Part shown: positions 1 through 63,916 of the stretch, in pieces
Layout of the letters: the number at the start of each line of letters is the position of its first letter
Numbering within the stretch: the stretch's first letter is position 1
Source: Nannocystis sp. RBIL2
GTDB taxonomy: Bacteria > Myxococcota_A > Polyangia > Nannocystales > Nannocystaceae
NCBI RefSeq assembly: GCF_026626745.1
Contig: NZ_JAPNJW010000001.1
Location: 716,311 to 780,310, forward strand
Direction of reading: 5' to 3'
Length of the DNA stretch: 64,000 nt
Translations under genes and position numbers: made by a program
Notes under the pieces: generated by a model
Databases searched by the model: none
What the model saw: only the letters and a program-made list of their open reading frames with translations
What the model was told of the DNA's origin: nothing

Positions 1-173
1 TCAGTCGCAGGTACATACAAACACGTTACATCGCGCGCGCGTCGGCGCGCCGGCCAGGATCGCTCGCGCGGGTGCGCCCGATTGCGACGATGTAAGGAGC
101 CCCATCGGACATGTCCGAATGAACATGTCCGAACAGTCTTCTCACCCGAAGACCCGGCCGCGGCGGCGCCGCT

Positions 174-3359: not shown

Positions 3360-4619
3360 GTGCACGCCCGCGATCCCGAGCTCTCCGCCGCCGACCCTGA
3401 GATCTTCGCGCTGATCGAGCAGGAGGACGCGCGCCAGCGCGACAGCCTGCGCCTCATCGCCAGCGAGAATTACGTGTCGAAGGCCGTGCTCGCCGCGACC
3501 GGCACCAGCCTCACCAACAAGTACGCCGAGGGCTACCCGGGCAAGCGCTACTACGAGGGCATGGACTTCGTCGACCCGATCGAGTCGCTGGCCATCGCCC
3601 GCGCGCGCGAGCTGTTCGGGGCCGATCACGCCAACGTCCAGCCCTACAGCGGATCGCCGGCCAACCTGGCCGCGCTGCTCGCCCTGTGCCAAACCGGCGA
3701 CACCATCATGGGGCTGGCTCTCCCCGCGGGCGGTCACCTCACCCACGGCTGGAAGGTCAGCGCCACCGGCATCTACTACAAGGCCGTCCAGTACGGCGTC
3801 CGCCCCGACGACCACCGCATCGACCTCGACGAGGTCCGCAGCATCGCGCTCGCCAACCGGCCCAAGCTGATCTGGGTCGGTCACTCGGCCTACCCGCGCC
3901 AGCTCGACTTCGCCGGCTTCGCCGCGATCGCGCGCGAGGTCGGGGCCTACCTCGCGGCCGACATCGCGCACATCGCCGGCCTCGTCGCCGGCGGCGCGCA
4001 CCCGAGCCCCGTGCCGCACGCCGACGTCGTCACCACCACCACGCACAAGACGCTCCGCGGCCCGCGCGGCGGCCTGATCCTCAGCAAGGCCGCGCACGCG
4101 GCCGCGATCGACAAGGCAGTATTCCCCGGCCTGCAGGGCGGCCCGCACTGCCACACCACAGCCGCCAAGGCAGTCGCCTTCCGCGAGGCGCTGCAGCCGA
4201 GCTTCCGCGACTACGCCCACCAGATCGTCGCCAACGCCCAGGCCCTCGCCGAGGCCCTCATCGCCCGCGGCCACGTCCTCGTGTCCGGCGGCACCGACAA
4301 CCACCTGCTGCTCGTCGATCTGACGCCCACCGGCCAGGGCGGCCGCCACGTCGCGCGCGTGCTCAACCGCTGCGGCATCGAGCTCAACGCCAACGCCATC
4401 CCGTTCGACCCGCGCAAGCCGTTCGATCCCTCGGGCCTGCGCATCGGCCTGGCCGCCATCACCTCGCGCGGCATCGAGACCCACCACATGCCCGTCGTCG
4501 CCGACCTGATCGCCGACGGCATCGCCCTCGCCGTCGAGAACGCCGACGACGCCCGCTGCGAGGTCCACCGCGGCCGCGTGCGCGAGTTCCTGCGCGCCTT
4601 CCCGGCCCCCGGCCTCTGA
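3360..4619 (+). CDS. glyA: serine hydroxymethyltransferase
   Basis: 419 aa with the canonical SHMT N-terminus (IASENYVSKAVLAATGTSLTNKYAEGYPGKRYY) and the HLTHG segment. Confidence 0.93.
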   Translation: MHARDPELSAADPEIFALIEQEDARQRDSLRLIASENYVSKAVLAATGTSLTNKYAEGYPGKRYYEGMDFVDPIESLAIARARELFGADHANVQPYSGSPANLAALLALCQTGDTIMGLALPAGGHLTHGWKVSATGIYYKAVQYGVRPDDHRIDLDEVRSIALANRPKLIWVGHSAYPRQLDFAGFAAIAREVGAYLAADIAHIAGLVAGGAHPSPVPHADVVTTTTHKTLRGPRGGLILSKAAHAAAIDKAVFPGLQGGPHCHTTAAKAVAFREALQPSFRDYAHQIVANAQALAEALIARGHVLVSGGTDNHLLLVDLTPTGQGGRHVARVLNRCGIELNANAIPFDPRKPFDPSGLRIGLAAITSRGIETHHMPVVADLIADGIALAVENADDARCEVHRGRVREFLRAFPAPGL

Positions 4620-4643: not shown

Positions 4644-5825
4644 ATGCAGCCGTACCCCATCACTGCCATGGCCCTGTGCAACGGCATGGGCGACAGCACC
4701 GCCGCCGTGCTCGCCGCCTTGCGTGCCGGTCGCTCCGGCCTCGGCCCGTGCCCCGCCGAGTTCGAGCTCGACGCGGTCGTCGGCGCCATCCCGACCCCGC
4801 TGCCGTCGCTGCCCGGCTTCCTCGGCCCGGTCCGCGACACCCGGCAGGCGCGGATCGCCGCGGTCGCCCTGGCCGAGCTGCAGGCCCCGCTGGACCGCGC
4901 GCGCGCCCGCTGGGGTTCGGACCGCGTCGCCATCGTCCTCGGCACCAGCACCGGCGGCATCGAGGCCAGCGAGACCGCCTACGCCCACGCGCAGGCCCAC
5001 GGCGGCGCCCTCCCGGCCGCCTACGACGTCGAGACCTCGCACGCCCTCGACGCCGTCCTGCACGTCGCCCGCGTCCTCGGCGGCGGCCTCGGCGGCCCGG
5101 CCTACGTCGTCTCGACCGCCTGCTCCTCTTCCGCCAAGGTGTTCGCCTCGGCCCAGCGGCTGCTCGCCGCCGGCCTGTGCGACGCGGTCCTGGTCGGCGG
5201 CGTCGACAGCCTGTGCCGCCTCACCGTGCGCGGCTTCGCCGGCCTCGAGGTCCTGTCCTCGCGGCCATGTCGTCCGTTCTCGCGCGAGCGGGCCGGCATC
5301 AACATCGGCGAGGGCGCCGCGCTGCTCCTGGTCGAACGGACAGGTGACGGCCCGGCCCGCCTGCTCGGCGTCGGCGAGAGCTCCGACGCCTACCACATGA
5401 CGAGCCCGCACCCCGAGGGCCTCGGCGCGCGCATGGCGATGGAGCGCGCGCTCCAGCACGCCGGCCTTTCCGCCGCCGACGTCGACCACGTCAACGCCCA
5501 CGGCACCGGCACCAAGCAGAACGACAGCATGGAGAGCGCGGCGATCCGGGCGGTGTTCGCCGGGGCCCCTGCGCCCGCGGTGGTCGCCACCAAGGGCTAC
5601 ACCGGGCACATGCTCGGGGCCGCGGGCGCCACCGAGGTCGCCTTCGTCATCGACGCCATCGCCGGCGGCTACCTGCCCGCCAGCGTCGGCGCCGACCCGC
5701 TCGACGACACCCTCGCGGTCGACGTGGTCACCGCCCGCCGCGACGTCCCCACCCGCGCCGCGCTGAGCAACTCGTTCGCCTTCGGCGGCAGCAACTGCAG
5801 CGTCCTCGTCGGAGGCCCGGCATGA
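4644..5825 (+). CDS. beta-ketoacyl-ACP synthase (KAS I/II-like; ApeO-like ketosynthase)
   Basis: 393 aa with active-site Cys in STACSSS, two His motifs (HMTSP, NAHGTGT) and C-terminal NSFAFGGSN. Its stop originally overlapped the next gene start. Confidence 0.85.
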   Translation: MQPYPITAMALCNGMGDSTAAVLAALRAGRSGLGPCPAEFELDAVVGAIPTPLPSLPGFLGPVRDTRQARIAAVALAELQAPLDRARARWGSDRVAIVLGTSTGGIEASETAYAHAQAHGGALPAAYDVETSHALDAVLHVARVLGGGLGGPAYVVSTACSSSAKVFASAQRLLAAGLCDAVLVGGVDSLCRLTVRGFAGLEVLSSRPCRPFSRERAGINIGEGAALLLVERTGDGPARLLGVGESSDAYHMTSPHPEGLGARMAMERALQHAGLSAADVDHVNAHGTGTKQNDSMESAAIRAVFAGAPAPAVVATKGYTGHMLGAAGATEVAFVIDAIAGGYLPASVGADPLDDTLAVDVVTARRDVPTRAALSNSFAFGGSNCSVLVGGPA

Positions 5826-5832
5826 GCGCCTG

Positions 5833-5896
5833 CGCTTCCAGACATGTTCATCGGGACATGTCCCGATGTTCATCCTGCCCGCTGCCCGCGGCCCGC
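5833..5896. mobile_element. about 64-bp CATG-palindrome element inserted at the KS/CLF gene junction, flanked by 23-bp direct repeats (CGTCGGAGGCCCGGCATGAGCGC)
   Basis: Direct repeat copies lie at about 5810-5832 and 5896-5918. Each copy contains the ATGA stop/start overlap; the insert carries GACATGTTCATCGGGACATGTCCCGATGTTCATC. Confidence 0.6.
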
Positions 5897-5910
5897 GTCG
5901 GAGGCCCGGC

Positions 5911-6714
5911 ATGAGCGCGCTCGCCTTCGCCGTCCGCGGCCTCGGGTTCTGGACCCCCGGCTACCCCGACCTCGCCGCCTGGCGGGCCCGGCCCGACACC
6001 TGGCCCGAAGGACAGGCGCCTCCGACCGAGCCGGCCGCCCCGAAGGCCGAGCTGCTGCCACCGATGATGCGGCGGCGCACCAGCCTGCTCACCCGCATGG
6101 CCGCCGAGGTGGCCGCCCAGGCGCTGCAGGACGGCGGCGTCGACCGGGCCGCGGCCACCCTCGTGTACGGCTCCGTCTACGGCGAGATCCGCACCACCCT
6201 CGACCTCCTCGCCGCCCTGCTCGTCCCCGGCGAGCCGCTGTCGCCGACCAAGTTCCACAACAGCGTCCACAACACGGCGGCCGGCTACGTCTCGATCGCC
6301 ACCGGCAACCGGGCCGGCAACGCCGCCCTGTCAGCCGGCCTCTCGACCCTCGCCATGGGCCTCGTCGAGTGCGCCGCCCTCGTGGCCGCCGGCGAGGGCG
6401 ACGTGGTGCTCGTGCTCGCCGAGGAGCCGCTGCCCGAGCCGCTGGCCGCCGGCCGCCGCTGGGACCCGTTCGCCGCCGCCTTCGCCCTTTCGGCGCCTGT
6501 CCCCGGCGACATGCCCATGAGGACATGTCGCCTCGAACATGGCGCGAATGACATGCTCCCCGCGCCACGTCCGGTCCCGGCCGCCCTGGCCGCCAACCCG
6601 TGCGCCGCCGCGCTCGCGCTGGTCGAGGCGCTGGCCGCCGGCGCCCCGGCGCGGATCGCCCTCGAGCCGCACCTCGCGGTCGGCTGGCAGTGCGCGCTCG
6701 GAGCCGGGGCATGA
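5911..6714 (+). CDS. KS-like chain-length-factor-type protein (Ketoacyl-synt_2 family, lacks active-site Cys)
   Basis: About 267 aa starting MSALAFAVRGLGFWTP; carries a KS N-terminal-domain-like signature (FHNSVHNTAAGYVSIATG). Its TGA overlaps the next ATG. It contains an in-frame CATG-repeat insertion at about 6507-6561. Confidence 0.7.
   Translation: MSALAFAVRGLGFWTPGYPDLAAWRARPDTWPEGQAPPTEPAAPKAELLPPMMRRRTSLLTRMAAEVAAQALQDGGVDRAAATLVYGSVYGEIRTTLDLLAALLVPGEPLSPTKFHNSVHNTAAGYVSIATGNRAGNAALSAGLSTLAMGLVECAALVAAGEGDVVLVLAEEPLPEPLAAGRRWDPFAAAFALSAPVPGDMPMRTCRLEHGANDMLPAPRPVPAALAANPCAAALALVEALAAGAPARIALEPHLAVGWQCALGAGA
6507..6561 (+). repeat. 4 tandem 14-bp CATG-core units (CGACATGCCCATGAG / GACATGTCGCCTCG / AACATGGCGCGAAT / GACATGCTCC) lying in frame inside the CLF-like CDS
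   Basis: Read directly from the sequence; they encode DMPMRTCRLEHGANDMLP within the protein. Confidence 0.8.
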
Positions 6715-11376: not shown

Positions 11377-12366
11377 ATGCGGCGCCCCTTCTGCCTCTCG
11401 AGCGTCTACCTCCTCGCGGTCCTCGCGCTGTCGGCCCCGCTCATCGTCGTCGAGGCGCCCGACCCCGGCGAACCTGTCCCCGAGGACACCTGCGACGCCG
11501 ACGCCGTCGACCCCGAGCTGCTGGGCGTCTGGCACCGCTGGGACGCCCTCGCCGAGGGCGACCGCATGCGCTTCTACTTCTTCCACGAGGGCGGCTTCGG
11601 CCTCTACCGCTACGGCAAGGTCGGCCTCACCAACACCCACAGCTTCGACTACCGCGCCGAGGGCGGCCACCTCGAGCTCACCTTCCGCAAGACCGGCGAG
11701 CGCCGGCGCGTCCCCTACCGCCTCGAGGAGCAGGGCGGACGCACCTGGCTGGTCCTCGACGACGACCCGCGCGAGCCCGGCGGCGCCCGCTACTTCAAGG
11801 CCCCGGCGGCCACCACCGGCGCGCCCTGCTACGACCCCGCGGGCGACCTGCCCCAAAAGCCAGGCACTCCCGCGCCCGGGCCCACCGCCAGCGACCTGCC
11901 CCAAGAGCCAGGCTCCCCCGCGCCCGCGCTGCTCGCCGCGGGCCTGCCCCGAGAGCCAGGCTCCCCCGCGCCCCTCGCCGCCGACGACCTCGCCGCCGCC
12001 GAGCGGATCGGCGGGCGCCTGTGGGGCGAGGAGGTCCGTTACGCCACCGGCGGCATGGGCTTCTCGATCTACCAGCTGCAGCCGCAAGCGATCGACGGCC
12101 GCGGCGTCGGCTGGCACCACCGCGGCGACTACGACGAGTGGACCACTGAGACCCTGACCTACCGCCAGCGCGGCGATCGCCTGGCCCTGTCGTTCCCGCT
12201 GCGCCACGACGGCCTCGACACCGCGATCCTCGTCAGCGGCAGCGGCGACGACCGCACCCTCCAGCTCGCCGAGGATCCGCGCGACTTCTGGCGCGCCCAC
12301 ACCTACCGCGACATGGGCCCCACCTTCGCCGGCGCGGTCGCCCCGAGCGCCTGCCTGCCGCAGTGA
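11377..12366 (+). CDS. hypothetical secreted protein with 3 x 48-bp internal tandem repeats
   Basis: Signal peptide MRRPFCLSSVYLLAVLALSAP; repeats DLPQ(K/E)PG(T/S)PAP; no recognisable domain. Confidence 0.45.
   Translation: MRRPFCLSSVYLLAVLALSAPLIVVEAPDPGEPVPEDTCDADAVDPELLGVWHRWDALAEGDRMRFYFFHEGGFGLYRYGKVGLTNTHSFDYRAEGGHLELTFRKTGERRRVPYRLEEQGGRTWLVLDDDPREPGGARYFKAPAATTGAPCYDPAGDLPQKPGTPAPGPTASDLPQEPGSPAPALLAAGLPREPGSPAPLAADDLAAAERIGGRLWGEEVRYATGGMGFSIYQLQPQAIDGRGVGWHHRGDYDEWTTETLTYRQRGDRLALSFPLRHDGLDTAILVSGSGDDRTLQLAEDPRDFWRAHTYRDMGPTFAGAVAPSACLPQ
11845..11973 (+). repeat. 3 x 48-bp tandem repeat within the hypothetical secreted protein gene
   Basis: GACCTGCCCCAA(A/G)AGCCAGGC(A/T)C(T/C)CCCGCGCCC x 3. 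Confidence 0.8.
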
Positions 12367-12418
12367 CCACCCCGTCGACGCCGACTCTGCCTGTCTCTTC
12401 GCGCAGGCCCTTCAAGAC

Positions 12419-13150
12419 ATGTCCTTGACGCCAGACGACATCGCCGCCAACCTCGCCGCCGTCCGCGCCCGGATCGCCGCCGCCGTCGCCCGACGCGGCC
12501 CCGGTCCCGTGCCCACCCTCATCGGCGTCAGCAAGAAGCAGCCCGCCGAGGCCGTGATCACCGCCTGTCGGGCCGGCCTCGGCGACCTCGGCGAGAACTA
12601 CGCCCAGGAGCTGGTCGCCAAGGCCGAGCTCGTCGCCGCGGCCGTCACCCCGCCGCGCTGGCACTTCATCGGCCCGCTGCAGACCAACAAGGTGCGCAAG
12701 GTCGTCGCCGTCGGCGCCCTCGTCCACACCGTCGATCGCCCGGGGCTCGTCGACGAGCTCGCCCGCGAGGTCGAGCGCCTGCGCGCGGGCCGAGGCGCCA
12801 CCACCCCGCTCGAGCTGCTCGTCGAGGTCAACGTCGGCGACGAGGCGCAGAAGGCTGGCGTCTCCCCGACGGACCTGCCGGCGCTGCTCGACCAGATCGC
12901 CGCCCGTCCCCAGCTGCGCTGCGTCGGCCTCATGGCGATCCCCCCCGAGGGCGAGCCGGAGCAGACTCGCCCGTACTTCGCCCGCCTGCGCGAGCTGCTG
13001 CGCCGTGAAGCCGCGATCGCGCGCCCCGGCGTCGACCTGGTCCACCTCTCCATGGGCATGAGCGCCGACTTCGAGGTCGCGATCGAAGAGGGCGCGACCA
13101 TGGTCCGCGTCGGCACCGCCATCTTCGGCGCCCGTCCGCCGCGCGCCTGA
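12419..13150 (+). CDS. yggS: YggS-family pyridoxal-phosphate-binding protein (PLP homeostasis)
   Basis: 243 aa with the alanine-racemase N-terminal fold signature (LIGVSKKQP...GHLQTNKVR...). Confidence 0.85.
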   Translation: MSLTPDDIAANLAAVRARIAAAVARRGPGPVPTLIGVSKKQPAEAVITACRAGLGDLGENYAQELVAKAELVAAAVTPPRWHFIGPLQTNKVRKVVAVGALVHTVDRPGLVDELAREVERLRAGRGATTPLELLVEVNVGDEAQKAGVSPTDLPALLDQIAARPQLRCVGLMAIPPEGEPEQTRPYFARLRELLRREAAIARPGVDLVHLSMGMSADFEVAIEEGATMVRVGTAIFGARPPRA

Positions 13151-17628: not shown

Positions 17629-17695
17629 GCCGACTGGCCGCCAGGACATGTCCTCGCGGCCAGCTCGGCGGTGCCGTCCGTCCGGCTGAGCTCGC

Positions 17696-18470: not shown

Positions 18471-19778
18471 TCACGCGACCAGTCGACCGACCGCGAGCGG
18501 CCCGTCGGCGTTCTCGACCTCGATTTGCGTCGCCCGGCCGAGCAGCGCGTCGTCTCCGGCCGCCAGCACCGTCAAGCCGTTGCCGGCCCGACCGACCAGC
18601 AGCCCCGTCCGCCGGTGTCGCGTCCGGTGCACGACCACCGGCAGGGTGCGCCCGACCTGCGCCGCCGCGAACGCCCGCTGCTTCGCCGCCGACAGCGCCC
18701 GCAACGCCGCCCCGCGCTGCTGCTTGACCGCCGCATCGACCTGTCCCGAGAGACAGGCAGCATCGGTGCCCGCGCGCGGTGAGTAGGCGAACACGTGCAG
18801 GTACGCCAGCGGCAGCGCGGCCAGCAGCGCGTGCGTGGCCGCGAACGCCTCGTCCGACTCCCCGGGGAAGCCGACGATCACGTCGGTGCCGACGCCGATC
18901 CCCGGCACCGCCCCGGCCAGGCGAGGCACCAGCGCCTGCAGGTCGGCGGCGGTGTGCGCCCGACGCATGCGCCGCAGCGTGTCGTCGTCGCCGCTCTGCA
19001 CCGGCAAGTGGAGGTACGGACACAGCCGCGGATCCGTCGCCAGCAGCGTCACCAGGTGATCGTCGACTTCGTGCGGATCGACCGAGCCGAGGCGCAGCCG
19101 CGCCGGCCCGAGCTGCGGCAGCAGCTCCGCGACCAGCGACGACAACGTGCTGCGCGGCCGCAGGTCGCGGCCATAGATCCCGAGGTGGACCCCGGTGAGC
19201 ACCACCTCCGGCACCCCCGCCGCGACCAGCTCGTCCAGCTGCGCCCGCACCTCCGCCGGCGGCACGCTCACGCTGCGCCCGCGCACCTGCGGCACGATGC
19301 AGAAGCTGCAGCGGTAGTCGCAGCCGTCCTGGATCTTCAGGTACGCCCGGCTGCGCCGCGGGTCGGCGGCCGGGCGCAACCGGGCCGCGCGGACGCGCCG
19401 CAGCAGGTCGACCGGGGCCACGTGGATCTCCGGGACATGTTCCTCCGAACATGTCTCTCCGAGCACCTCGAACAGCCGCTCCTTCTCGCGGTTGCCGACC
19501 ACCAGCGTCACCCCGGGCAGCGCGGCCGCCTCCGCGGGGGCGGCCGTCGCCCAGCAGCCGGTGACGACCACCTTCGCCCCGGCGCGCGCGGCCCGGCGCA
19601 CGTGCTGGCGCGCGTCGGCGTCGGCCTCGTGGGTGATCGTGCAGGTGTTGACGATCACGACCTCGGGCGCGGCCTCGGCGTCGACCACGGTGTGGCCGGC
19701 CGCGCGGGCCATCTGCTCGAGGGCGTCGGACTCGAACTGGTTGAGGCGACAGCCGAGCGTGCTGAACGCGACGCGCAT
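18471..19778 (-). CDS. mtaB: radical SAM methylthiotransferase, MtaB (YqeV)-like
   Basis: N-terminal MTTase domain (MRVAFSTLGCRLNQFESD), CxxxCxxC radical SAM motif (DGCDYRCSFCIVP) and a C-terminal TRAM-like region. Its ATG overlaps the kinase stop (ATGA). Confidence 0.85.
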   Translation of the reverse strand: MRVAFSTLGCRLNQFESDALEQMARAAGHTVVDAEAAPEVVIVNTCTITHEADADARQHVRRAARAGAKVVVTGCWATAAPAEAAALPGVTLVVGNREKERLFEVLGETCSEEHVPEIHVAPVDLLRRVRAARLRPAADPRRSRAYLKIQDGCDYRCSFCIVPQVRGRSVSVPPAEVRAQLDELVAAGVPEVVLTGVHLGIYGRDLRPRSTLSSLVAELLPQLGPARLRLGSVDPHEVDDHLVTLLATDPRLCPYLHLPVQSGDDDTLRRMRRAHTAADLQALVPRLAGAVPGIGVGTDVIVGFPGESDEAFAATHALLAALPLAYLHVFAYSPRAGTDAACLSGQVDAAVKQQRGAALRALSAAKQRAFAAAQVGRTLPVVVHRTRHRRTGLLVGRAGNGLTVLAAGDDALLGRATQIEVENADGPLAVGRLVA

Positions 19779-24470: not shown

Positions 24471-24477
24471 ACTTTAC

Positions 24478-24564
24478 GGCATGTCCGTGTGGACATGCCC
24501 TTTCATGCAGGGCCGTTCGGACATGTCCGAACGGCCCTGTCGCTTGCTCCGTCGACAAGCGACA
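24478..24564. terminator. cluster of three GC-rich palindromes (22, 32 and 25 nt) downstream of the acyl-CoA dehydrogenase
   Basis: GGCATGTCC-GTGT-GGACATGCC; a perfect 32-nt palindrome CAGGGCCGTTCGGACATGTCCGAACGGCCCTG; and GTCGCTTG-N9-CAAGCGAC. Confidence 0.6.
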
Positions 24565-24649
24565 CGAGCAGCCTGACGACCGCAATTCTCGAGCGCTCAT
24601 GGGCTCCCCACGCTGGGTCGCCTGCGCCAGGTCGGGCCCGAAAGCAGCA

Positions 24650-24677
24650 TGACCGCCAGGACATGTCCTGGCGGTCA
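24650..24677. terminator. perfect 28-nt palindrome TGACCGCCAGGACATGTCCTGGCGGTCA next to the convergent binding-protein gene end
   Basis: Read directly from the sequence; a candidate bidirectional terminator hairpin with a CATG core. Confidence 0.6.
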
Positions 24678-24702
24678 CGCCTCTCGCGCGGGTGAGCGCG
24701 GC

Positions 24703-35633: not shown

Positions 35634-37202
<1,569 letters not shown>

Positions 37203-38287: not shown

Positions 38288-39296
38288 AGCCTCGGCGGGG
38301 CGCGTCGCGGTCGCGCTTCTCGCCGGCCTGGCGATCGCCTGCGGCGTCCCGACGCCGACCGGGACCACCGGCATCGACGACGAGCCCGCCGCGCGCGACC
38401 GCGTCGACGTCCACGTCCACCTCGTCGGCGGTGCAGTCGACGAGCTGCTCGCCGCGCTCGATCGCAACGCCATCGCCGCCGCCGTCGTGATCGCCTCGCC
38501 GCACCTCGATCCCGCGCTCGGCCTCGCTCCTGGCCCCGACGCGCGCATGCACGGCTGGCGCGAGGCCAACGACGCCCTGCTCGCCGCCACCGCGGCCCAC
38601 CGCGCGCGCCTGTTCCCGTTCGTCGCAGTCGAGCCGGCCGAGGTCGACATCCCCGCGCTCGAGCGGTGGTTTCAGGGCGGTGCTCGCGGCGTCAAGCTGT
38701 ACTTCGGCCACCAGAAGCTGCACGCCCGCCCGCTCGACGATCCGGCCCACGCCTCGCTGTTCGAGTGGCTCGAGCAGCGCTCCGTGCCCGTGCTCGTCCA
38801 CGTCAACACCGTGCGCTACCGCGACGAGCTCGCCCGCGTGCTGCGGGCCCACCCGCGCCTCGAGCTGGTCTGCGCGCACCTGTGCGGCAGCCGCACCGAC
38901 CTCGATCGCCTCGCCGGACTCCTGCGCGAGTTCCCGCGGCTGCGCGTCGACACTAGCCACGGCGCCGGCCTGCCCGGCGTCGACGGCTTCACCGCCATCG
39001 AGGAGGATCGGGATCGGCTGCGCGCTCTCATCGAGATCCAGCCCGAGCGGTTCCTGTACGGCTCCGACCTCGTCACCGCCCCCGGCGACCTCGACGCCGC
39101 GCGCGCCTGGGACCTGCAGCTCGCCGCCAACCTCGGCCTGCTCGAGCGCGAGCGGTTCGAGTTCTGGCGCCACGCCGCCCGGATCGGCGCGCTCACGCCC
39201 GGCGTCTACCACGGCCTCGCGCTCCCCGAGCCCGCCGTCTCCCGCGTGCTCGCCGGCAACGCCCGCGCCTGGCTCGGCGCCTACCGATCCCCGTAA
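38277..39296 (+). CDS. amidohydrolase-2 family metal-dependent hydrolase (TIM barrel) with lipoprotein signal
   Basis: Lipobox (LAGLAIACG); metal-ligand pattern VDVHVHLV ... HLCG ... D. Confidence 0.65.
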   Translation: MSAEASAGRVAVALLAGLAIACGVPTPTGTTGIDDEPAARDRVDVHVHLVGGAVDELLAALDRNAIAAAVVIASPHLDPALGLAPGPDARMHGWREANDALLAATAAHRARLFPFVAVEPAEVDIPALERWFQGGARGVKLYFGHQKLHARPLDDPAHASLFEWLEQRSVPVLVHVNTVRYRDELARVLRAHPRLELVCAHLCGSRTDLDRLAGLLREFPRLRVDTSHGAGLPGVDGFTAIEEDRDRLRALIEIQPERFLYGSDLVTAPGDLDAARAWDLQLAANLGLLERERFEFWRHAARIGALTPGVYHGLALPEPAVSRVLAGNARAWLGAYRSP

Positions 39297-39378
39297 TTTC
39301 AGAGCATGTCTCGAAGCACATGCCCCATCGAACATGCCCTGAAAGACATGCCCCATCGGGCATGCCCGTGAGCGCCGC
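39297..39378. repeat. 5 tandem 13-16-bp CATG-core units (AGAGCATGTCTCGA / AGCACATGCCCCATCG / AACATGCCCTGAA / AGACATGCCCCATCG / GGCATGCCCGTGAG) filling a convergent intergenic region
   Basis: Read directly from the sequence; the array occupies the entire space between two convergent stop codons. Confidence 0.85.
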
Positions 39379-45439: not shown

Positions 45440-45449
45440 CGCCGCCGGC

Positions 45450-45524
45450 TGTCTTCACGGACAGGCGCTCGAGAGCATGTTCTCACGGACATGTCTGGAC
45501 GATCATGTCCCCGCGGACATGTCC
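45450..45524. repeat. TGTC-N6-GACA element plus 4 tandem CATG-core units (GAGAGCATGTTCTCACG / GACATGTCTGGAC / GATCATGTCCCCGCG / GACATGTCCTCAG) in a convergent intergenic region
   Basis: Read directly from the sequence between the ABC ATPase stop and the mqnD stop. Confidence 0.85.
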
Positions 45525-46343
45525 TCAGCGCGGCAACAGCCCCGCCGCCTGCCCGCGCGCGCGCAGCTCGGCCAGCGCCGCCGCCCCTTCGGCTCCCATG
45601 TCGCGCGAGAACTCGTTGACGTACAGCGCGATGTGCTGCCGGCAAACCTCGTCGCTCAGCTCCTGCGAGTGCGCCTTCACGAACGGCCACGCCGCGGCCG
45701 GGTCGGCCTCCGCCGCCGCGATCGACCGGGCGATCCCCTCCTCCACCGCCCGCACCTGCCCGGCGGGCAGCGAGCGGTGGGCCGCGATCACCCCGAGCGG
45801 CAGCGGCAGCCCCGTCGCCGCCTCCCACACCTCGCCGAGGTCCGCCACCTGCTGCAGCCCGTGATCGCGGAACACGAACCGCGCCTCGTGGATCACCAGC
45901 CCCGCGTCGACCTCCCCCGCGGCCACCGCCGGCATGATGCGATCGAAGCGCATCGGCACCACGGTCACCGACGCCGGCGCGAAGCAGCGCAGCAGCAGGT
46001 GCGCCGTCGTGTACGCGCCCGGGATGGCGATCTTCCGCCCCGCCAGCGCCACCAGCTCCGTCGCCTCGCGCGCGACCACCAGCGGCCCGCAGCCGCGGCC
46101 CAGCGCCGCGCCTGTCCGCAAGACCAGGTAATCGCGCTCGACCCAGAACAGCCCGTGCGCGCTCAGCTTCGTTACCGGCAGCGGCGCCTCGCCGGCCAGC
46201 GCGCGCTCGTTGAGCGCCTCGATGTCGGCCAGCCACGGCAGCGGCCGCAGCCCCGGCACGAACTCCGGCACGCGCACCAGCGCGTCGAACATCCACGTGT
46301 CGTTCGGACACGGCGAGAACCCGAGAGGCAGCGGCTCGCTCAT
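45525..46343 (-). CDS. mqnD: 1,4-dihydroxy-6-naphthoate synthase (futalosine pathway)
   Basis: 272 aa with N-terminal LGFSPCPNDTWMFDAL, characteristic of the MqnA/MqnD fold. Its ATG overlaps the upstream gene stop. Confidence 0.7.
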   Translation of the reverse strand: MSEPLPLGFSPCPNDTWMFDALVRVPEFVPGLRPLPWLADIEALNERALAGEAPLPVTKLSAHGLFWVERDYLVLRTGAALGRGCGPLVVAREATELVALAGRKIAIPGAYTTAHLLLRCFAPASVTVVPMRFDRIMPAVAAGEVDAGLVIHEARFVFRDHGLQQVADLGEVWEAATGLPLPLGVIAAHRSLPAGQVRAVEEGIARSIAAAEADPAAAWPFVKAHSQELSDEVCRQHIALYVNEFSRDMGAEGAAALAELRARGQAAGLLPR

Positions 46344-50826: not shown

Positions 50827-50836
50827 CCCTTCGAAC

Positions 50837-52318
50837 ATGTCCAAGAGCGCACCCGTCAAGAAGACCACCAGCAAGATCTGGGACAAGGTCAAGGACGTCG
50901 TCGACCCCGACCGCGCCCTCCAGGCCACCGTCGCCGCCGCCATCGAGGGCGTCGCCGTCCGCAACGTCCTCGGCATGGCGCCCGAGACGTGGAAGCCGGG
51001 CAAGCCGCTCAAGCTGCTGCTGGCCGGCTACGTCGGCACGCGCAACACCGGCGCCGACGTCCGCGTCGAGGAGATGATCCGCCAGCTGCGCCACGTCGTC
51101 GGCGACGACCAGCTCGAGCTGACGATCATGACCGTCGATCCCAAGTTGACGCGCGGCTACTTCCGCGCCGTCCACCAGATCGAGCTGCCGGCGGTGTTCC
51201 CCAAGTTCATCGCCACCGAGTGCCCGAAGCACCACGGCGTCATCGCTTGCGAGGGCTCGATGTTCAAGTCGAAGTTCTCGAGCGCGCTGACCTGCTTCAT
51301 GGCCGGCGCCCTCGGGCTCGCCAACGCCGAGAACAAGGTCAGCGTCGGCTACGGCGCCGAGGCCGGCAACATGACCCCGGCGCTCCGCGACTTCGTGCGC
51401 GACGCCTGCAAGAAGTCGCTCGTCATCTGCCGCAACGAGCCCTCGCGCAAGGTCCTCGGCGAGCTCGGCATCCGCACCACCTCTGGGGCCGACACCGCCT
51501 GGACCTTCGACCCCGCTCCGCTGTCCAGGGGCGCCCAGCTGCTGCGCGACGCCGGCTGGGACGGCCGCCAGAAGGTCCTCGTCGTCTGCCCGATCAACCC
51601 GTTCTGGTGGCCGGTCAAGCCCGACCTGCTCAAGTACGCCGCCTACAAGCTCGGCGGGCAGTACAAGCACGAGCACTACAGCGCCTTCTACTTCCACCAC
51701 CACAGCGAAGCGTCCGACAAGAAGTACAACGCGTACATCCAGGCCCTGGCCGACGGTGTCAACGCGTTCGCCGCGGAGCGCGAGTTCTTCACCATCCTCG
51801 TCGGCATGGAGCAGCTCGACCGCCACGCCTGCGAGGACCTGCAGCCGCGCCTCGATCGCGGCGGCGCGCTGTTCGTCAGCGACGAGCACGACATGTACGA
51901 CCTCGTCAGCGTGCTGCGTAACTGCAGCATGATGATTAGTTCGCGCTTCCACGCGATCGTCACCTCGATGCCCGGCCTCGTGCCCTCCGCCGGCGTCACC
52001 ATGGACGAGCGGATCCGCAACCTCATGAACGATCGCGGCCACCCGGACATGTTCTTCGAGGTCGACGAGGAGGGCCTCGGCGACAAGCTGCTGCACACCC
52101 TGCGCCGCCTGTGGCGCGACGCCGAGGGCATCAGCGCCGACATCGCCCGCGCCGTCCCGGCCCAGCTGAAGCTCATGGGTCAGATGGGCATCGACTTCAT
52201 GGACGAGGTCGTCCGCGTCTACCCCGAGTTCCCGCGCCGCGACCTCCCGCGCACCTGGGAAGCCCACCTGCCGCCGCTGCCCGCCAACGTGCAGCGCCTG
52301 CTGGAGCGCCACGCATGA
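50837..52318 (+). CDS. polysaccharide pyruvyl transferase family protein
   Basis: 493 aa with PS_pyruv_trans-type motifs (GYVGTRNTGAD ... ISSRFHAIV). Confidence 0.7.
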   Translation: MSKSAPVKKTTSKIWDKVKDVVDPDRALQATVAAAIEGVAVRNVLGMAPETWKPGKPLKLLLAGYVGTRNTGADVRVEEMIRQLRHVVGDDQLELTIMTVDPKLTRGYFRAVHQIELPAVFPKFIATECPKHHGVIACEGSMFKSKFSSALTCFMAGALGLANAENKVSVGYGAEAGNMTPALRDFVRDACKKSLVICRNEPSRKVLGELGIRTTSGADTAWTFDPAPLSRGAQLLRDAGWDGRQKVLVVCPINPFWWPVKPDLLKYAAYKLGGQYKHEHYSAFYFHHHSEASDKKYNAYIQALADGVNAFAAEREFFTILVGMEQLDRHACEDLQPRLDRGGALFVSDEHDMYDLVSVLRNCSMMISSRFHAIVTSMPGLVPSAGVTMDERIRNLMNDRGHPDMFFEVDEEGLGDKLLHTLRRLWRDAEGISADIARAVPAQLKLMGQMGIDFMDEVVRVYPEFPRRDLPRTWEAHLPPLPANVQRLLERHA

Positions 52319-58779: not shown

Positions 58780-59799
58780 ATGACTCGAGGGATTTGGCTG
58801 GCACTGGTCGGTTCGGTTGTGGCCTGTGATGTCGTCGATAACGACGTTCAAACGGCGGTTACGCTGCGAAGCGACGTCGGTAACGGACTCGAGTTGAACT
58901 CCGCCGTGATGAACGGTCAGCAGTTCAACGGCATGCGCATGAACGGGATCAACCTCAACGGCATGCGCATGAACGGTTGGACCATCAACGGGATCAACCT
59001 CAACGGTATCAACCTCAACGGCAGCAGCTTCTCCGCCACCATGGTGGTCGACGGCACTCCGGTTCAGGTGAGCGGCGACGACCTCATCGGCTCGCTGCTC
59101 AGCCTCGAGGCCGGCACCGACACCTACGTCCTGCGCTTCGACGACATCTTCCTCGACCCGGCCGACCCGACCGGCGACGTGTGGTTCTACGACATCGCGG
59201 TGCAGGACGTGGGGGCCGGCACCTGGTCCAGCCTCTGCTACGACCACAACGGCCAGCCGACCCAGGCGATCGCCATCGGCAACTGGTGGGACGGCGTCAC
59301 CGGCGACCGCAACGACGACGCCAGCGTCGTCACCTTCGCCTGCCGCGACGCCGTGCTGGCCAAGTGCGTCGAGTGGGGTTATCGCCCGTGGGCCACCGTC
59401 GGCGGCGTCTCGCTCGCCGATCACCACCAGGCGTGCACCCGGCTGGCCCGCGCCGACTACTGCGGCGACGGCACCCCCCACACCTTCAACGGCACGCCGA
59501 TCGACGTGTTCGACGGGCTCAGCCCGGCGATCCAGGGCCCGGCCACGCTGACCATGCAGAACTGGGGCATCGAGGCCGAGTGGGGCCCGGACGGCGCCGT
59601 CTGTGTCGGCGACCAGCGGCGCCTCAAGATGCTCGACGACGCCGGCGTCCCCTACGAGTTCCCGACCTGCCTCGACGCCATCGACGACATCAGCACCTGC
59701 GGCGACTTCGACAGCGGCCGCGGCGGCCTTTTGGCCGATCGCTACTGCGACAAGTGGCAGTCCGACCCGGGCTCCTGCGACGGCTCCCAGCCCGAGTGA
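58780..59799 (+). CDS. ADYC-domain lipoprotein with N-terminal NG(I/M)(N/R)(L/M)NG repeats
   Basis: Lipobox (LALVGSVVACD), tandem NGMRMNGINLNG repeats, and the eponymous ADYCGDG motif. Confidence 0.6.
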   Translation: MTRGIWLALVGSVVACDVVDNDVQTAVTLRSDVGNGLELNSAVMNGQQFNGMRMNGINLNGMRMNGWTINGINLNGINLNGSSFSATMVVDGTPVQVSGDDLIGSLLSLEAGTDTYVLRFDDIFLDPADPTGDVWFYDIAVQDVGAGTWSSLCYDHNGQPTQAIAIGNWWDGVTGDRNDDASVVTFACRDAVLAKCVEWGYRPWATVGGVSLADHHQACTRLARADYCGDGTPHTFNGTPIDVFDGLSPAIQGPATLTMQNWGIEAEWGPDGAVCVGDQRRLKMLDDAGVPYEFPTCLDAIDDISTCGDFDSGRGGLLADRYCDKWQSDPGSCDGSQPE

Positions 59800-59871: not shown

Positions 59872-60312
59872 ATGAGCTGGATCCGGATCGGTGACACCAC
59901 CTGGACCTTTCGCAACGCCTCGCTCGAGCTCTACCATTGCGAGGGCCCCGAGGCCGACTGGAACCTCGCGCTGGACCACGCCGGCGCGACGCTGTGGCTG
60001 GCCGGCACCGTCGTCCCCGGGCCGCGCTCGCCCGAGGCGCTGATCGGCGCCGAGGTCTCGGTCGACCTGCGCTCGCTCGACGAGGTCGCCGGCGCCCTGC
60101 TCGGCCGCGCCGTCACCCTCTTCCCGCACGGCCAGGACGTGAATGCGCTCGGCTTTCGCCTGGCCGCCTCGCCCGGCGGAGTGCGCCTGGCCGCCTCTGC
60201 CCGCTGCGACTGGGACCGCTACCTCGGCACCTTCGACCACGGCCAGCCGGTCGACCTCGAGCTCGACATCGACGCCGCCGTCGTCGCGCTGCACCCCGGA
60301 AACATGCCCTGA
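59872..60312 (+). CDS. hypothetical protein
   Basis: 146-aa ORF with good third-position GC; no recognisable domain. Confidence 0.3.
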   Translation: MSWIRIGDTTWTFRNASLELYHCEGPEADWNLALDHAGATLWLAGTVVPGPRSPEALIGAEVSVDLRSLDEVAGALLGRAVTLFPHGQDVNALGFRLAASPGGVRLAASARCDWDRYLGTFDHGQPVDLELDIDAAVVALHPGNMP

Positions 60313-60375
60313 GGGGCATGCTCGATCGCGCAGGTCTTGTTCGACATGTCCTCTCGGACATGTGCTTTGCGACAG
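60301..60375. repeat. CATG-core units and palindromes (CATGCCC-TGAG-GGGCATG; TTCGACATGTCCTCTCGGACATGTGC)
   Basis: Read directly from the sequence. Confidence 0.8.
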
Positions 60376-61714: not shown

Positions 61715-63916
61715 ATGGCGACATTTCTTCCGTTGATGCGTCCCCGTCCTGCTCCGGCCCGTGCTGCGAATCGTGACCGCGGCGGCGAACGACCGCGGCC
61801 GCAGCGAGGCTCGCCCGCCCCGCTGTTCGCCCCCGGCGTACGTTCGCCCCTCGAAGCCGAAGCGGATCGAATCGCCGCTCGCGTCGCCGCGGAGCCCGCA
61901 CCGCTCGCGCGAGCGAACACCGATGCATCTTTCGCGGCACCCGCGAGAGCGTCGGTCGCGGCCGCTGCGCCCGCCGCCGACCTCGCGCCGCGACTGTCCC
62001 CCCTGGCCGCGTCGCCGGCACGCGCCGCGCACCGGCCGACGGCGCTGCCCGATCCGCCGTCCGGGTTCACCGCTCAGCTCCGTCAGGTCCCGGGGCGCCC
62101 GCTGGAGCCGGCGCTCCTCCGCCGGATGGAGGCGCAGTTCTCCGCCGATTTCTCGGGCGTTCGAATCCACGACGGATCACGCGCTCACCATCTGGCCGAC
62201 CAGCTCGGCGCACGGGCGTTCACGCGCGGCGCGGACATCTTTTTCAACCGCGGTCAGTTTCGGCCCGCCGATCCGTCAGGCACGCGATTGATCGCGCACG
62301 AACTGACGCACACCATTCAGCAAGGCCGCTCGCCGGCCGCGATCGCCCCCCGCCCCGACGCGCCGCTCCCACGATTCGGGCCCCCCGCTCCCGTGCGGCC
62401 TTTCATTCAGCGCGACCCACTCGCGCTTTCGGGCAGCCTCTCCGACGAGCTCAAGCGCGCCAGCAACCTCACCCCGCCGATCGTCGCCGGTGACTTCGTC
62501 AGCTTCGCCGTGCCGGTCGCGGGGAATCAGAAGATCGCGCTCCAGTTCGCCGAGAAGGGCACCCTCCTGCGCTTCAAGTCGACGCGAGATCCGGCGCCGC
62601 CGCTCGAGACGCCGATCCCGCTGGTACCGGACTTTCAGCCGGCCGTCGTCCGCCGCGACGACGGGCTCCTCGTCATTCGCTTGAACCCGGCCGGCGCCGA
62701 GGTCCAGGTGCAATACGCAGCAGGGTCCACGATCGTCAGCACCGACGCGATCGACCCCGAGCGGCCGTTCGGAGCGGTGCAAATGGGCCGTGAATTCTCC
62801 CGACCGTACCTCGGAGCGAAGATCACGCATCCCGGCGGGACGGAGAATTATTTCTTCGAGGACACGAGCCTGCCGGCCGAGGCGATCGCCAAGCCCACCT
62901 GGCAGCCCTTCATCCGCCAGGGGAAGATCGCCTATCGCGCCGCCTCCGGCCCCTACGCAGGCCGCGTCGTCGAGGTCGATGAATCGGATCGCAGCGCGGC
63001 AAAAAGCTTCGCGGGCGGCGCAGAGTCGGCCGCCAAATTCTCCGCCGAGCTGGCGCTCGGGGCCATCCCCTACGTCGGCCCGTTGCTGCTCGTGGGCCAG
63101 GCCGCGGCGGGCCGGACGCTCTGGGGCGAGCGCCTGTCCCCCGCGGGACGCGTCGTGCTCGGCCTGTTCGCTCTCCTGGGTCCGGCGTTGCGGCTGGCCA
63201 AGGCGACGCCCGAGGCCGAGCTGCAGCTGGCACGGCAGGAGGCGGCTGCCCGTGGGATCTCCGAACGCGAGGCGCTGCGGCTGCTCCGCGGGATGCGGGC
63301 GCTATCCGAGGAGCAGAGGGCCTTCATCCGCGAGGCCGAGGCCCGGATCCGGGGCGGTCAGGCGCTCACGGCCGCCGAGGCGTCCCAGCTCGCGCGACTC
63401 ATGAATCAGATGGGCGCAAAGACCGACCTCATCTTCAGCGCGGCGAACGACATCGAGCTCATCTGGCAGTCCCGACGGTATTGGGGCAAGACGGAGGGCT
63501 CGGCCTACGGCGCGCGCATCCCGGTGACGACCGCGCTCGAGCGCTTCAAGGCGATGATCGACGAGAAGCAGGGCATGCTGGTGTTTCAGGGCGACGCCGC
63601 CAAGCTGTTCCACGCCCACGAGGTCGAGGGCGGCTACAGCGCCATGAAGCGCCTCCTCGGCCAGCACAAGGCGGGCTTCGGCGACCTCATCCTCGACGAC
63701 GTCGTCAAGGAGGGCAACACTCTCATCGTCACCCGCGCACACCTGGCCACGGCCGCCGAGAAGCTGCACGCGGGCCAGACCACCTCGTGGGCGGCGACGA
63801 AGCTGTGGGGCCGCCGCTTGGTCCTCGACCCCCTGTTCGCCGCGGCCGGTGTCGGCGGCGCCTCCGTCGCCGTCTATTTCTTGTACTCTTTCCTCCGCGA
63901 GGCGAACGAAGAATGA
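61715..63916 (+). CDS. DUF4157 (zincin-like HExxH) domain protein with about 550-aa C-terminal extension
   Basis: DUF4157 hallmark ...DFSGVRIHDGSRAHHLADQLGARAFTRGADIFF...LIAHELTHTIQQ; large C-terminal region of unknown function with a hydrophobic C-terminal end. Confidence 0.65.
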   Translation: MATFLPLMRPRPAPARAANRDRGGERPRPQRGSPAPLFAPGVRSPLEAEADRIAARVAAEPAPLARANTDASFAAPARASVAAAAPAADLAPRLSPLAASPARAAHRPTALPDPPSGFTAQLRQVPGRPLEPALLRRMEAQFSADFSGVRIHDGSRAHHLADQLGARAFTRGADIFFNRGQFRPADPSGTRLIAHELTHTIQQGRSPAAIAPRPDAPLPRFGPPAPVRPFIQRDPLALSGSLSDELKRASNLTPPIVAGDFVSFAVPVAGNQKIALQFAEKGTLLRFKSTRDPAPPLETPIPLVPDFQPAVVRRDDGLLVIRLNPAGAEVQVQYAAGSTIVSTDAIDPERPFGAVQMGREFSRPYLGAKITHPGGTENYFFEDTSLPAEAIAKPTWQPFIRQGKIAYRAASGPYAGRVVEVDESDRSAAKSFAGGAESAAKFSAELALGAIPYVGPLLLVGQAAAGRTLWGERLSPAGRVVLGLFALLGPALRLAKATPEAELQLARQEAAARGISEREALRLLRGMRALSEEQRAFIREAEARIRGGQALTAAEASQLARLMNQMGAKTDLIFSAANDIELIWQSRRYWGKTEGSAYGARIPVTTALERFKAMIDEKQGMLVFQGDAAKLFHAHEVEGGYSAMKRLLGQHKAGFGDLILDDVVKEGNTLIVTRAHLATAAEKLHAGQTTSWAATKLWGRRLVLDPLFAAAGVGGASVAVYFLYSFLREANEE

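Follow-up and report, generated by a model that had tools for sequence, protein, structure and literature searches.

A phased CATG repeat at the 3' ends of Nannocystis genes as a candidate source of bidirectional, U-less RNA hairpins

What purpose, if any, is served by the tandem CATG units that lie between two converging stop codons at 39.3 kb of the 64,000-nucleotide stretch of Nannocystis sp. RBIL2 DNA analysed here (hereafter, the window)? The gap in question (39297-39378, 82 bp) separates an amidohydrolase gene (+) from an EEP-family gene (-), both confirmed by Pfam. An earlier, sequence-only reading of the window had counted five units in it; all five CATGs were located, and the RNA of the array folds with z = -3.9 on the + strand and z = -5.2 on the - strand. 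The question reaches beyond one gap, since it is poorly understood how transcription comes to a stop in high-GC bacteria without U-tract terminators and, to our knowledge, almost no terminators have been mapped in the myxobacteria, with their 10-13 Mb genomes rich in natural-product clusters. We suggest, tentatively and with slightly less than even confidence, that the units are members of a REP/BIME-like family, that its transcripts form hairpins, and that these hairpins act as bidirectional terminators without a U-tract or protect the 3' ends of mRNAs.

The repeat is not confined to this gap, nor is its frequency in the window attributable to chance. There are 17 CATG-N10-CATG pairs against 0.51 expected from dinucleotide-preserving shuffles, none of 100 shuffles reaching 17, and the fuller form RRCATGYY-N6-RRCATGYY occurs nine times against an expectation of 0.00; every other CATG-CATG spacing is found 0-4 times, multiples of the codon phase excepted. 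CATG as such occurs 271 times (166 by mononucleotide expectation), and the window counts give no sign of its avoidance or of genome-wide enrichment. Eight gaps of the window carry CATG repeats. Four of them had been described as filled from end to end, mostly between convergent genes; CATG units are present at all four, far above chance, but the filling does not extend to all. The 85-bp gap at 45440-45524, between converging genes for an ABC ATPase (+) and mqnD (-), again Pfam-confirmed, does hold a hairpin and four units, whereas the overlap reported with the last codons of mqnD falls away: the last unit ends at 45524 and the stop codon occupies 45525-45527, so that the array adjoins the gene. 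The gap at 24471-24702 (232 bp; acyl-CoA dehydrogenase (+) and periplasmic binding protein (-), Pfam-confirmed) is convergent as stated, but only about 40% of it is repeat. The 60.3-kb gap is in fact co-directional (+/+), its units make up about 37% of 162 bp, and its first hairpin overlaps the upstream stop codon (60310-60312).

Several sites had escaped the first list, namely 107-130, 5840-5863, 17634-17663 and in-phase units in two coding regions. The palindrome at 17634-17663 begins 6 nt past the stop codon of a metallo-beta-lactamase-fold gene in a convergent gap, and the repeat core forms the centre of each of the three longest palindromes (30-34 bp) of the window. In-phase RRCATGYY units inside coding sequence have a chance expectation of about zero. 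Those of the CLF gene fall in a variable loop of the chain-length factor, where the reading frame is kept and GC3 dips locally; CLF orthologues carry two to three CATGs in phase, and the idea that this coding array is an insertion was rejected, the segment being present in all orthologues.

Table 1. Repeat sites and related features of the window, and orthologous arrays that keep their register in other Nannocystis genomes
Feature	Coordinates	Strand	Remarks
Doublet	107..130	-	about 45 bp downstream of a Ser/Thr kinase-TPR gene (stop codon at 174)
92-bp insertion between KS and CLF	5830..5921	+	71 bp with two units, plus second copy of 21-bp target TCGGAGGCCCGGCATGAGCGC
Four in-phase CATGs	6508..6555	+	inside CLF coding frame; repeat status uncertain
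30-bp palindrome	17634..17663	.	one mismatch; GGACATGTCC centre; fold z = -4.7
In-phase doublet	19434..19455	.	inter-domain linker of MiaB-like gene; repeat status uncertain
Doublet	24477..24500	.	CATG at 24480, 24494; 9-bp-stem hairpin 7 nt past acyl-CoA dehydrogenase stop codon
32-bp palindrome	24508..24539	.	outermost pair mismatched; central single GGACATGTCC core; fold z = -7.8, -9.1
34-bp palindrome	24647..24680	.	one mismatch; GGACATGTCC centre; 23 bp from stop codon of periplasmic-binding-protein gene (-)
Five-unit array	39302..39367	.	CATG at 39305, 39319, 39333, 39347, 39361
CTGTC-N6-GACAG hairpin	45449..45464	.	beside four-unit array
Four-unit array	45473..45524	.	adjoins mqnD stop codon 45525-45527
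Two doublets	60300..60365	+	CATG at 60303/60317 and 60345/60359; co-directional gap
Register-retaining orthologues L028/L036			N. punicea, N. radixulma
Register-retaining orthologues L021/L101 and L040/L095			N. radixulma, N. bainbridge
Register-retaining orthologues W/L105/L106			doublet 107-130 after kinase gene; window, N. radixulma, N. pusilla

Some observations at these sites stand by themselves. The CTGTC-N6-GACAG hairpin at 45.45 kb has no counterparts and no repeat family that we could find elsewhere. Between mqnD and the ABC ATPase gene, Nannocystis sp. SCPEA4 (L107, 992-5242) and a metagenome relative (L001, 1430-5789) carry three extra genes, two of them coding for proteins of unknown kind and one for a lysyl oxidase, whereas L002 and the window have the two genes as direct neighbours, which places the 45.45-kb array at the junction of an indel. 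SCPEA4 also has, downstream of mqnD (L107, 1030-1180), two near-identical CATG doublets about 88 bp apart, as though a doublet and its linker had been duplicated locally in tandem. At the very start of the window (1-50), just beyond the CATG doublet and downstream of the kinase gene, lies a very AT-rich non-coding block, GTACATACAAACACGTTAC, that is conserved in three Nannocystis lineages (the window, L105 at about 4200-4250 and L106 at about 4205-4250) and could be a promoter, an operator or a small RNA. Single cores also occur with their ATG serving as the predicted start codon of a gene, AGACATGTCC at 12413-12427 (Ala_racemase_N) and GAACATGTCC at 50831-50845 (PS_pyruv_trans), and may reflect chance or co-option.

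The family appears to be a property of the genus. Four RCATGY cores in 14-bp register were sought in one genome from each of some 186,000 species, and at least 99 loci were found. Among the 99 matches listed, 68 come from six Nannocystis species and are of the same array class as the window, with heterogeneous arms and spacers, the remaining 31, unrelated to these, being perfect microsatellites with a unit of 7 or 14 bp; among these matches, then, the repeat family is restricted to Nannocystis. Contigs of more distant Nannocystaceae (L002, L108 and L110; 76-86% protein identity) have few or no arrays, in what are small samples. Scans of the window returned no Rfam match at the gathering threshold and no tRNA gene, and a search of the literature for palindromic or intergenic repeats in Nannocystis and other myxobacteria, and for GGACATGTCC in bacteria, found nothing relevant, so the family is apparently undescribed.

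Its anatomy was derived from 175 arrays comprising 596 units, with two to six units per array. The module is CATG-YYY-NNNN-RRR in 14-bp register, or, seen from the core, a 10-bp palindrome of consensus RRRCATGYYY, most commonly GGACATGTCC, followed by a 4-nt spacer rich in A and T. Within the Nannocystis loci, 417 CATG pairs are spaced by 14 bp, against 7 by 13 bp and 16 by 15 bp, with harmonics at 28, 42 and 56 bp; a conserved core thus recurs at the fixed centre-to-centre distance typical of phased protein-binding arrays, and the rarity of out-of-register neighbours implies selection against indels. The CATG is invariant, and its symmetric flanks are held only to purine or pyrimidine class. 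Beyond the YYY-NNNN-RRR pattern the intervening 10-mers are nearly random, 388 of 430 being distinct, and neighbours within an array agree at 4.35 of 10 bases (4.14 for random pairs), only 6% of them at eight or more. With tandem repeat finder (TRF) scores also low, a simple tandem repeat or minisatellite of near-identical copies was rejected. Copying of multi-unit blocks from one locus to another finds no support either, as two-unit blocks common to different loci number 26 where 35.7 are expected, and outside the arrays no conserved flanking signature or terminal repeat was found. A higher order of repetition is seen at L067 (6280-6600, about four copies of a doublet-plus-linker unit of about 73 bp) and similarly at L010 (3790-4050), where, in N. 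exedens and N. punicea, convergent gaps of 450-600 bp are taken up by units of about 60-73 bp.

As the structural module we identify an 18-nt hairpin, CATGYYY-N4-RRRCATG, such that each CATG is common to two consecutive hairpins. Complementarity exceeds chance between arms on opposite sides of the spacer (z = +2.6) and falls below it between those around a single CATG (z = -3), although the excess in Watson-Crick pairs across the spacer is small (1.62 versus 1.53 of 3) and base-pair covariation is weak. Arrays end in half-units (TG plus YY), as this module predicts, and the next in-phase position past the end matches CATG at three of four bases in 28% of cases, compared with 3% at control offsets. 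Adjacent modules pair, and the outer flanks of a unit pair show more complementarity than chance predicts (z = 4.4 and 3.0). Across the window sites the RNA folds have z from -0.8 to -9.1, below -2 in 9 of 12, and yield the CATGYYY-N4-RRRCATG hairpins on both strands. A single GGACATGTCC core may alternatively tip a stem of 12-17 bp, in the palindromes of 30-34 bp, and the same 10-bp core thus lies in the stem within arrays and in the loop within single palindromes. No preferred stable tetraloop was found, the spacers being diverse with a slight excess of UUCG (6) over CGAA (1). On the sense strand G.U exceeds A.C (71 to 44 and 107 to 71), which agrees with hairpins at the RNA level and could equally reflect a transcription-linked C-to-T mutation bias. 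The motif is its own reverse complement, so the orientation of a doublet, and with it REPIN-type inversion, is undefined.

The arrays have a marked preference for the ends of genes. Genes in the sampled loci were called with a home-made codon-usage caller trained on these same loci (the ABC gene was corrected by Pfam), and, the Nannocystis loci having been ascertained through their own arrays, a partial correction was made by excluding the gaps that triggered the scan; figures so corrected are termed unbiased. Of 161 arrays, 132 are intergenic. Taking all gaps together, an array is present in 55 of 80 convergent, 41 of 242 co-directional and 8 of 73 divergent ones; the scan-triggering arrays (41 convergent, 21 co-directional and 1 divergent) removed, the unbiased counts are 14 of 39, 21 of 221 and 7 of 72, or 36% of convergent gaps versus 10% of the other types. 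The association with convergent gaps that had been read from the window alone is thus borne out as a preference, with elements also present in co-directional and divergent gaps. Where a gap is co-directional, the array begins a median of 13 bp past the stop codon and ends a median of 187 bp before the next start codon, and the gap length besides the array is 222 bp, compared with 71.5 bp in array-free gaps, which suggests that arrays mark the ends of operons or transcription units. The arrays do lie where terminators would be expected, with GC-rich hairpins directly past stop codons, and the lack of a U-tract that had been pointed out is general, at least five T in the following 8 nt being found after only 2% of 207 array ends. 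Canonical hairpin-plus-T sites occur in the window at shuffle level.

Comparison with related genomes reveals both retention and turnover. Four orthologous arrays (Table 1) keep their CATGs and register while the fillers and the flanking intergenic DNA have diverged or can no longer be aligned, and compensatory changes in the arms are found between orthologous arrays (ccc/ggg versus ttc/gaa, for example); such retention across species points to constraint on the core and the ruler. Conversely, a five-unit array of N. radixulma (L036) has no counterpart in the N. punicea gap (L028), in genomes about 90% identical. The 39.3-kb array is a similar case. SCPEA4, which aligns to 29.3-46.5 kb of the window at about 90% DNA identity and whose EEP protein is 96% identical, has 3 bp between the stop codons of the amidohydrolase and EEP genes and no repeat in the orthologous gap; the array lies within a 79-bp block of the window (about 39285-39363) that SCPEA4 lacks. 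The window, for its part, has different codons in place of the last three, and a degenerate copy of the former gene end persists downstream of the array. Gain in the window or loss in SCPEA4 would both account for this, and neither can be proven, the outgroups L110 and L002 having no amidohydrolase neighbour. The sequence-only reading had held that repeat-free orthologous gaps furnished with conventional hairpin-U terminators would speak against a role in termination; the SCPEA4 gap is repeat-free, but a hairpin-U terminator is lacking there too.

A clearer history can be read at the junction of KS and CLF, two genes of an aryl-polyene-like cluster that overlap (ATGA) in N. radixulma and N. 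pusilla, whose CLF proteins are respectively 85% and 82% identical to that of the window. Judged by its sequence, the 92-bp block that separates them in the window is unambiguously an insertion. Its 71-bp part holds CATGs at 5843 and 5857 (site 5840-5863) and a 20-bp palindrome (5849-5868), and the target TCGGAGGCCCGGCATGAGCGC, at 5809-5829, is repeated at 5901-5921, a duplication that restores a stop codon, a ribosome-binding site and a start codon. KS and CLF look co-transcribed and operon-like. Since the SCPEA4 gap does without an array and two units are tolerated between KS and CLF, the arrays are not indispensable terminators. The inserted blocks of 71 bp and 82 bp match other loci only through units of 10-24 bp, and a longer, MITE-like element was rejected on that ground; no donor was found for the inserted blocks, and metagenomes gave no match to a donor or orthologue of the 39.3-kb array.

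How, then, might the arrays act? The explanation that we favour, that of RNA hairpins at gene 3' ends, is drawn from the REP/BIME-like behaviour of the family together with two precedents. In Escherichia coli, REP325 is both a partly Rho-dependent terminator and an mRNA stabiliser (bioRxiv 10.64898/2026.03.23.713779), and in a high-GC actinobacterial genome poor in L-shaped terminators the lineage-specific stem-loop TRIT is tied to defined mRNA 3' ends (PMC3384566). The Nannocystis motif, being its own reverse complement, would be present in both of two converging transcripts. Arrays in 3' UTRs would form at least one stable GC-rich hairpin right behind the stop codon. Such hairpins would make RNA polymerase pause or terminate with no need of a U-tract, head-on collisions or a factor probably helping, and would block 3' exonucleases. 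The arrays themselves would arise through insertion of short blocks and local tandem duplication, some of them then being kept by selection on CATG and register. We thus infer that arrays may terminate or stabilise transcripts at the RNA level, and that a putative trans-acting factor may read RCATGY at fixed spacing. Against this reading, hairpins without a U-tract are poor terminators of bacterial RNA polymerase in vitro, and the dispensable 39.3-kb array and the KS/CLF insertion speak against termination that is strong and obligatory.

There are also features that hairpins alone do not explain. Hairpins tolerate variation in loop length, and the exact 14-bp register and the invariant CATG are therefore left unaccounted for. 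The invariant CATG, the exact register and the presence of one core in both stem and loop suggest either a factor of fixed geometry that works on DNA or RNA, or that the arrays are generated in some unusual way. The protein-dependent termination raised in the sequence-only reading is suggested by the strict 14-bp ruler only indirectly, and the factor itself is putative. A bolder proposal, which we consider doubtful, invokes a dedicated molecular ruler that would write or read the arrays, whether a putative Nannocystis-specific RCATGY factor or a new mechanism of propagation. Such a factor would recognise RCATGY on DNA or RNA at intervals of 14 bp and enforce bidirectional termination or insulation at gene ends, by possible analogy with mTERF-like roadblock terminators or a gyrase-loading array; under propagation, modules of CATG plus a 10-nt hairpin would be laid down as ready-made heterogeneous blocks. 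Either version agrees with a strict register whose fillers are near-random, and with a heterogeneous five-unit block having appeared in a relative about 90% identical.

Three further explanations have to be set against the RNA hairpins. The arrays might be a neutral or selfish repeat without host function, inserted or expanded in blocks by slippage or illegitimate recombination and surviving only where harmless, just past stop codons and between convergent genes. This is the safe haven of the sequence-only reading, and we regard it as unlikely, if deserving of serious attention. It would readily account for the presence or absence of arrays between genomes about 90% identical (the 39.3-kb array, and that of L036 missing from L028), for the clear insertion with a 21-bp duplication at the operon-internal KS/CLF junction, for arrays that are recent tandem duplications of 14 bp or about 70 bp (L057, L035, L067 and L010) and for the scarcity of arrays in L002, L108 and L110, and insertion into minimal gaps would by itself yield gaps that seem filled end to end. 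In its pure form it nevertheless fits poorly: arrays hug the stop codon, mostly within about 25 bp, despite 100-200 bp of promoter-free space beyond, CATG and register are kept between species whose intergenic DNA is otherwise unalignable, out-of-register neighbours are rare in a manner implying selection against indels, and neither the distinctness of the fillers nor the count of shared two-unit blocks leaves room for a master copy.

Phased sites on double-stranded DNA are a different proposition, in which the site read every 14 bp by a putative dimeric factor would be RRRCATGYYY or, as an 18-bp operator, CATGYYY-N4-RRRCATG, with three units amounting to four helical turns. The arrays would then be bidirectional roadblocks, sites for a topoisomerase or nucleoid protein that relieve supercoiling between converging genes, or targets of a reader of RCATGY methylation. 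We think it rather improbable that this is the main explanation, even though the strict ruler, an invariant CATG with flanks held only to class, the very weak covariation and the use of one core in two structural contexts all agree with it, as does the analogy of E. coli BIMEs, which bind gyrase and IHF. Against it, arrays end in half-units and not in full sites, it is the arms on either side of the spacer that are complementary rather than those flanking CATG, CATG is only 1.6x its mononucleotide expectation, and the window offers no candidate protein, no methyltransferase, transposase or unusual DNA-binding gene having been found among about 40 window genes scanned against Pfam. The likeness of RRRCATGYYY to a p53 half-site is taken as coincidence, because we know of no bacterial p53-like protein. 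Finally, these could be ordinary intrinsic (Rho-independent) terminators that share a motif by happenstance, as GC-rich hairpins directly past stop codons would allow; with U-tracts almost always missing, and with an invariant CATG and a fixed 14-nt register at hundreds of sites that unrelated terminators would not have in common, this is highly implausible.

Among known systems, the REP/BIME elements of Enterobacteria and Pseudomonas, including REPIN-RAYT, are the nearest in behaviour to the RNA hairpins that we favour. Like them, the Nannocystis repeats are short extragenic palindromes in high copy, gathered at gene 3' ends and between convergent genes, variable among related genomes and persistent within the lineage, and they form tandem clusters with linkers at 3' ends (L067 and L010, in convergent gaps). 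They differ in their module, which is 14 bp and in strict register rather than the 20-40 nt of REP; in holding only CATG and the RRR/YYY class rather than a conserved master sequence of about 20-40 nt; and at the 5' foot, where the invariant tetranucleotide is CATG and the flank logo is without GTAG. A Pfam scan of some 40 window genes found no RAYT (Y1 transposase). A lineage-specific stem-loop motif in a high-GC organism is the parallel offered by TRIT and other U-less, 'I-shaped' terminators, though lineage and motif are unrelated to those of Nannocystis, TRIT is a single longer palindrome and not a phased chain of 14-bp modules, and termination by the Nannocystis arrays is putative. The DUS of Neisseria and the USS of Pasteurellaceae are motifs of about 10 bp found genome-wide, often as inverted pairs downstream of genes that form terminator stems; the Nannocystis repeat resembles them in its repeated 10-bp motif and its inverted pairs downstream of genes, whereas DUS and USS are frequent inside genes, fixed in sequence and without a 14-bp register, and we know of no link to competence in Nannocystis. 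HIP1 of the cyanobacteria is a short palindrome with a 4-bp core of restriction/methylation type, conserved as a pattern and not by descent from a master copy. The Nannocystis repeat is likewise conserved as a pattern around a 4-bp core, RCATGY being the NspI class of site, but HIP1 is scattered unphased through coding DNA, while the Nannocystis units are overwhelmingly extragenic and CATG is not broadly over-represented.

Conservation as a pattern, of core and ruler, rather than through a master copy sets this family apart from REPINs and raises the question of how it is generated and maintained. In a genus that can be cultured, a compact and symmetric element that is easy to recognise marks about one in three of the unbiased convergent gaps, together with many ends of operons, so that the question of its function is directly testable; operon annotation could benefit from it, and it could be a source of small bidirectional terminators for the engineering of myxobacteria. 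The window contains other repeats of quite another kind, all of them coding: a tandem repeat of 66-bp unit in 2.4 copies (36476-36655), in a 522-aa protein without a Pfam match; one of 48-bp unit in 2.7 copies (11843-11973), in an unannotated ORF (11377-12366); and AACGG-rich repeats of 15, 30 and 45 bp (58909-59024) at the N-terminus of an ADYC-domain protein. Towards its end, after a gene for a beta-helix protein, the window also encodes a 596-aa protein (62126-63916) with an N-terminal eCIS_core domain, as in extracellular contractile injection systems.
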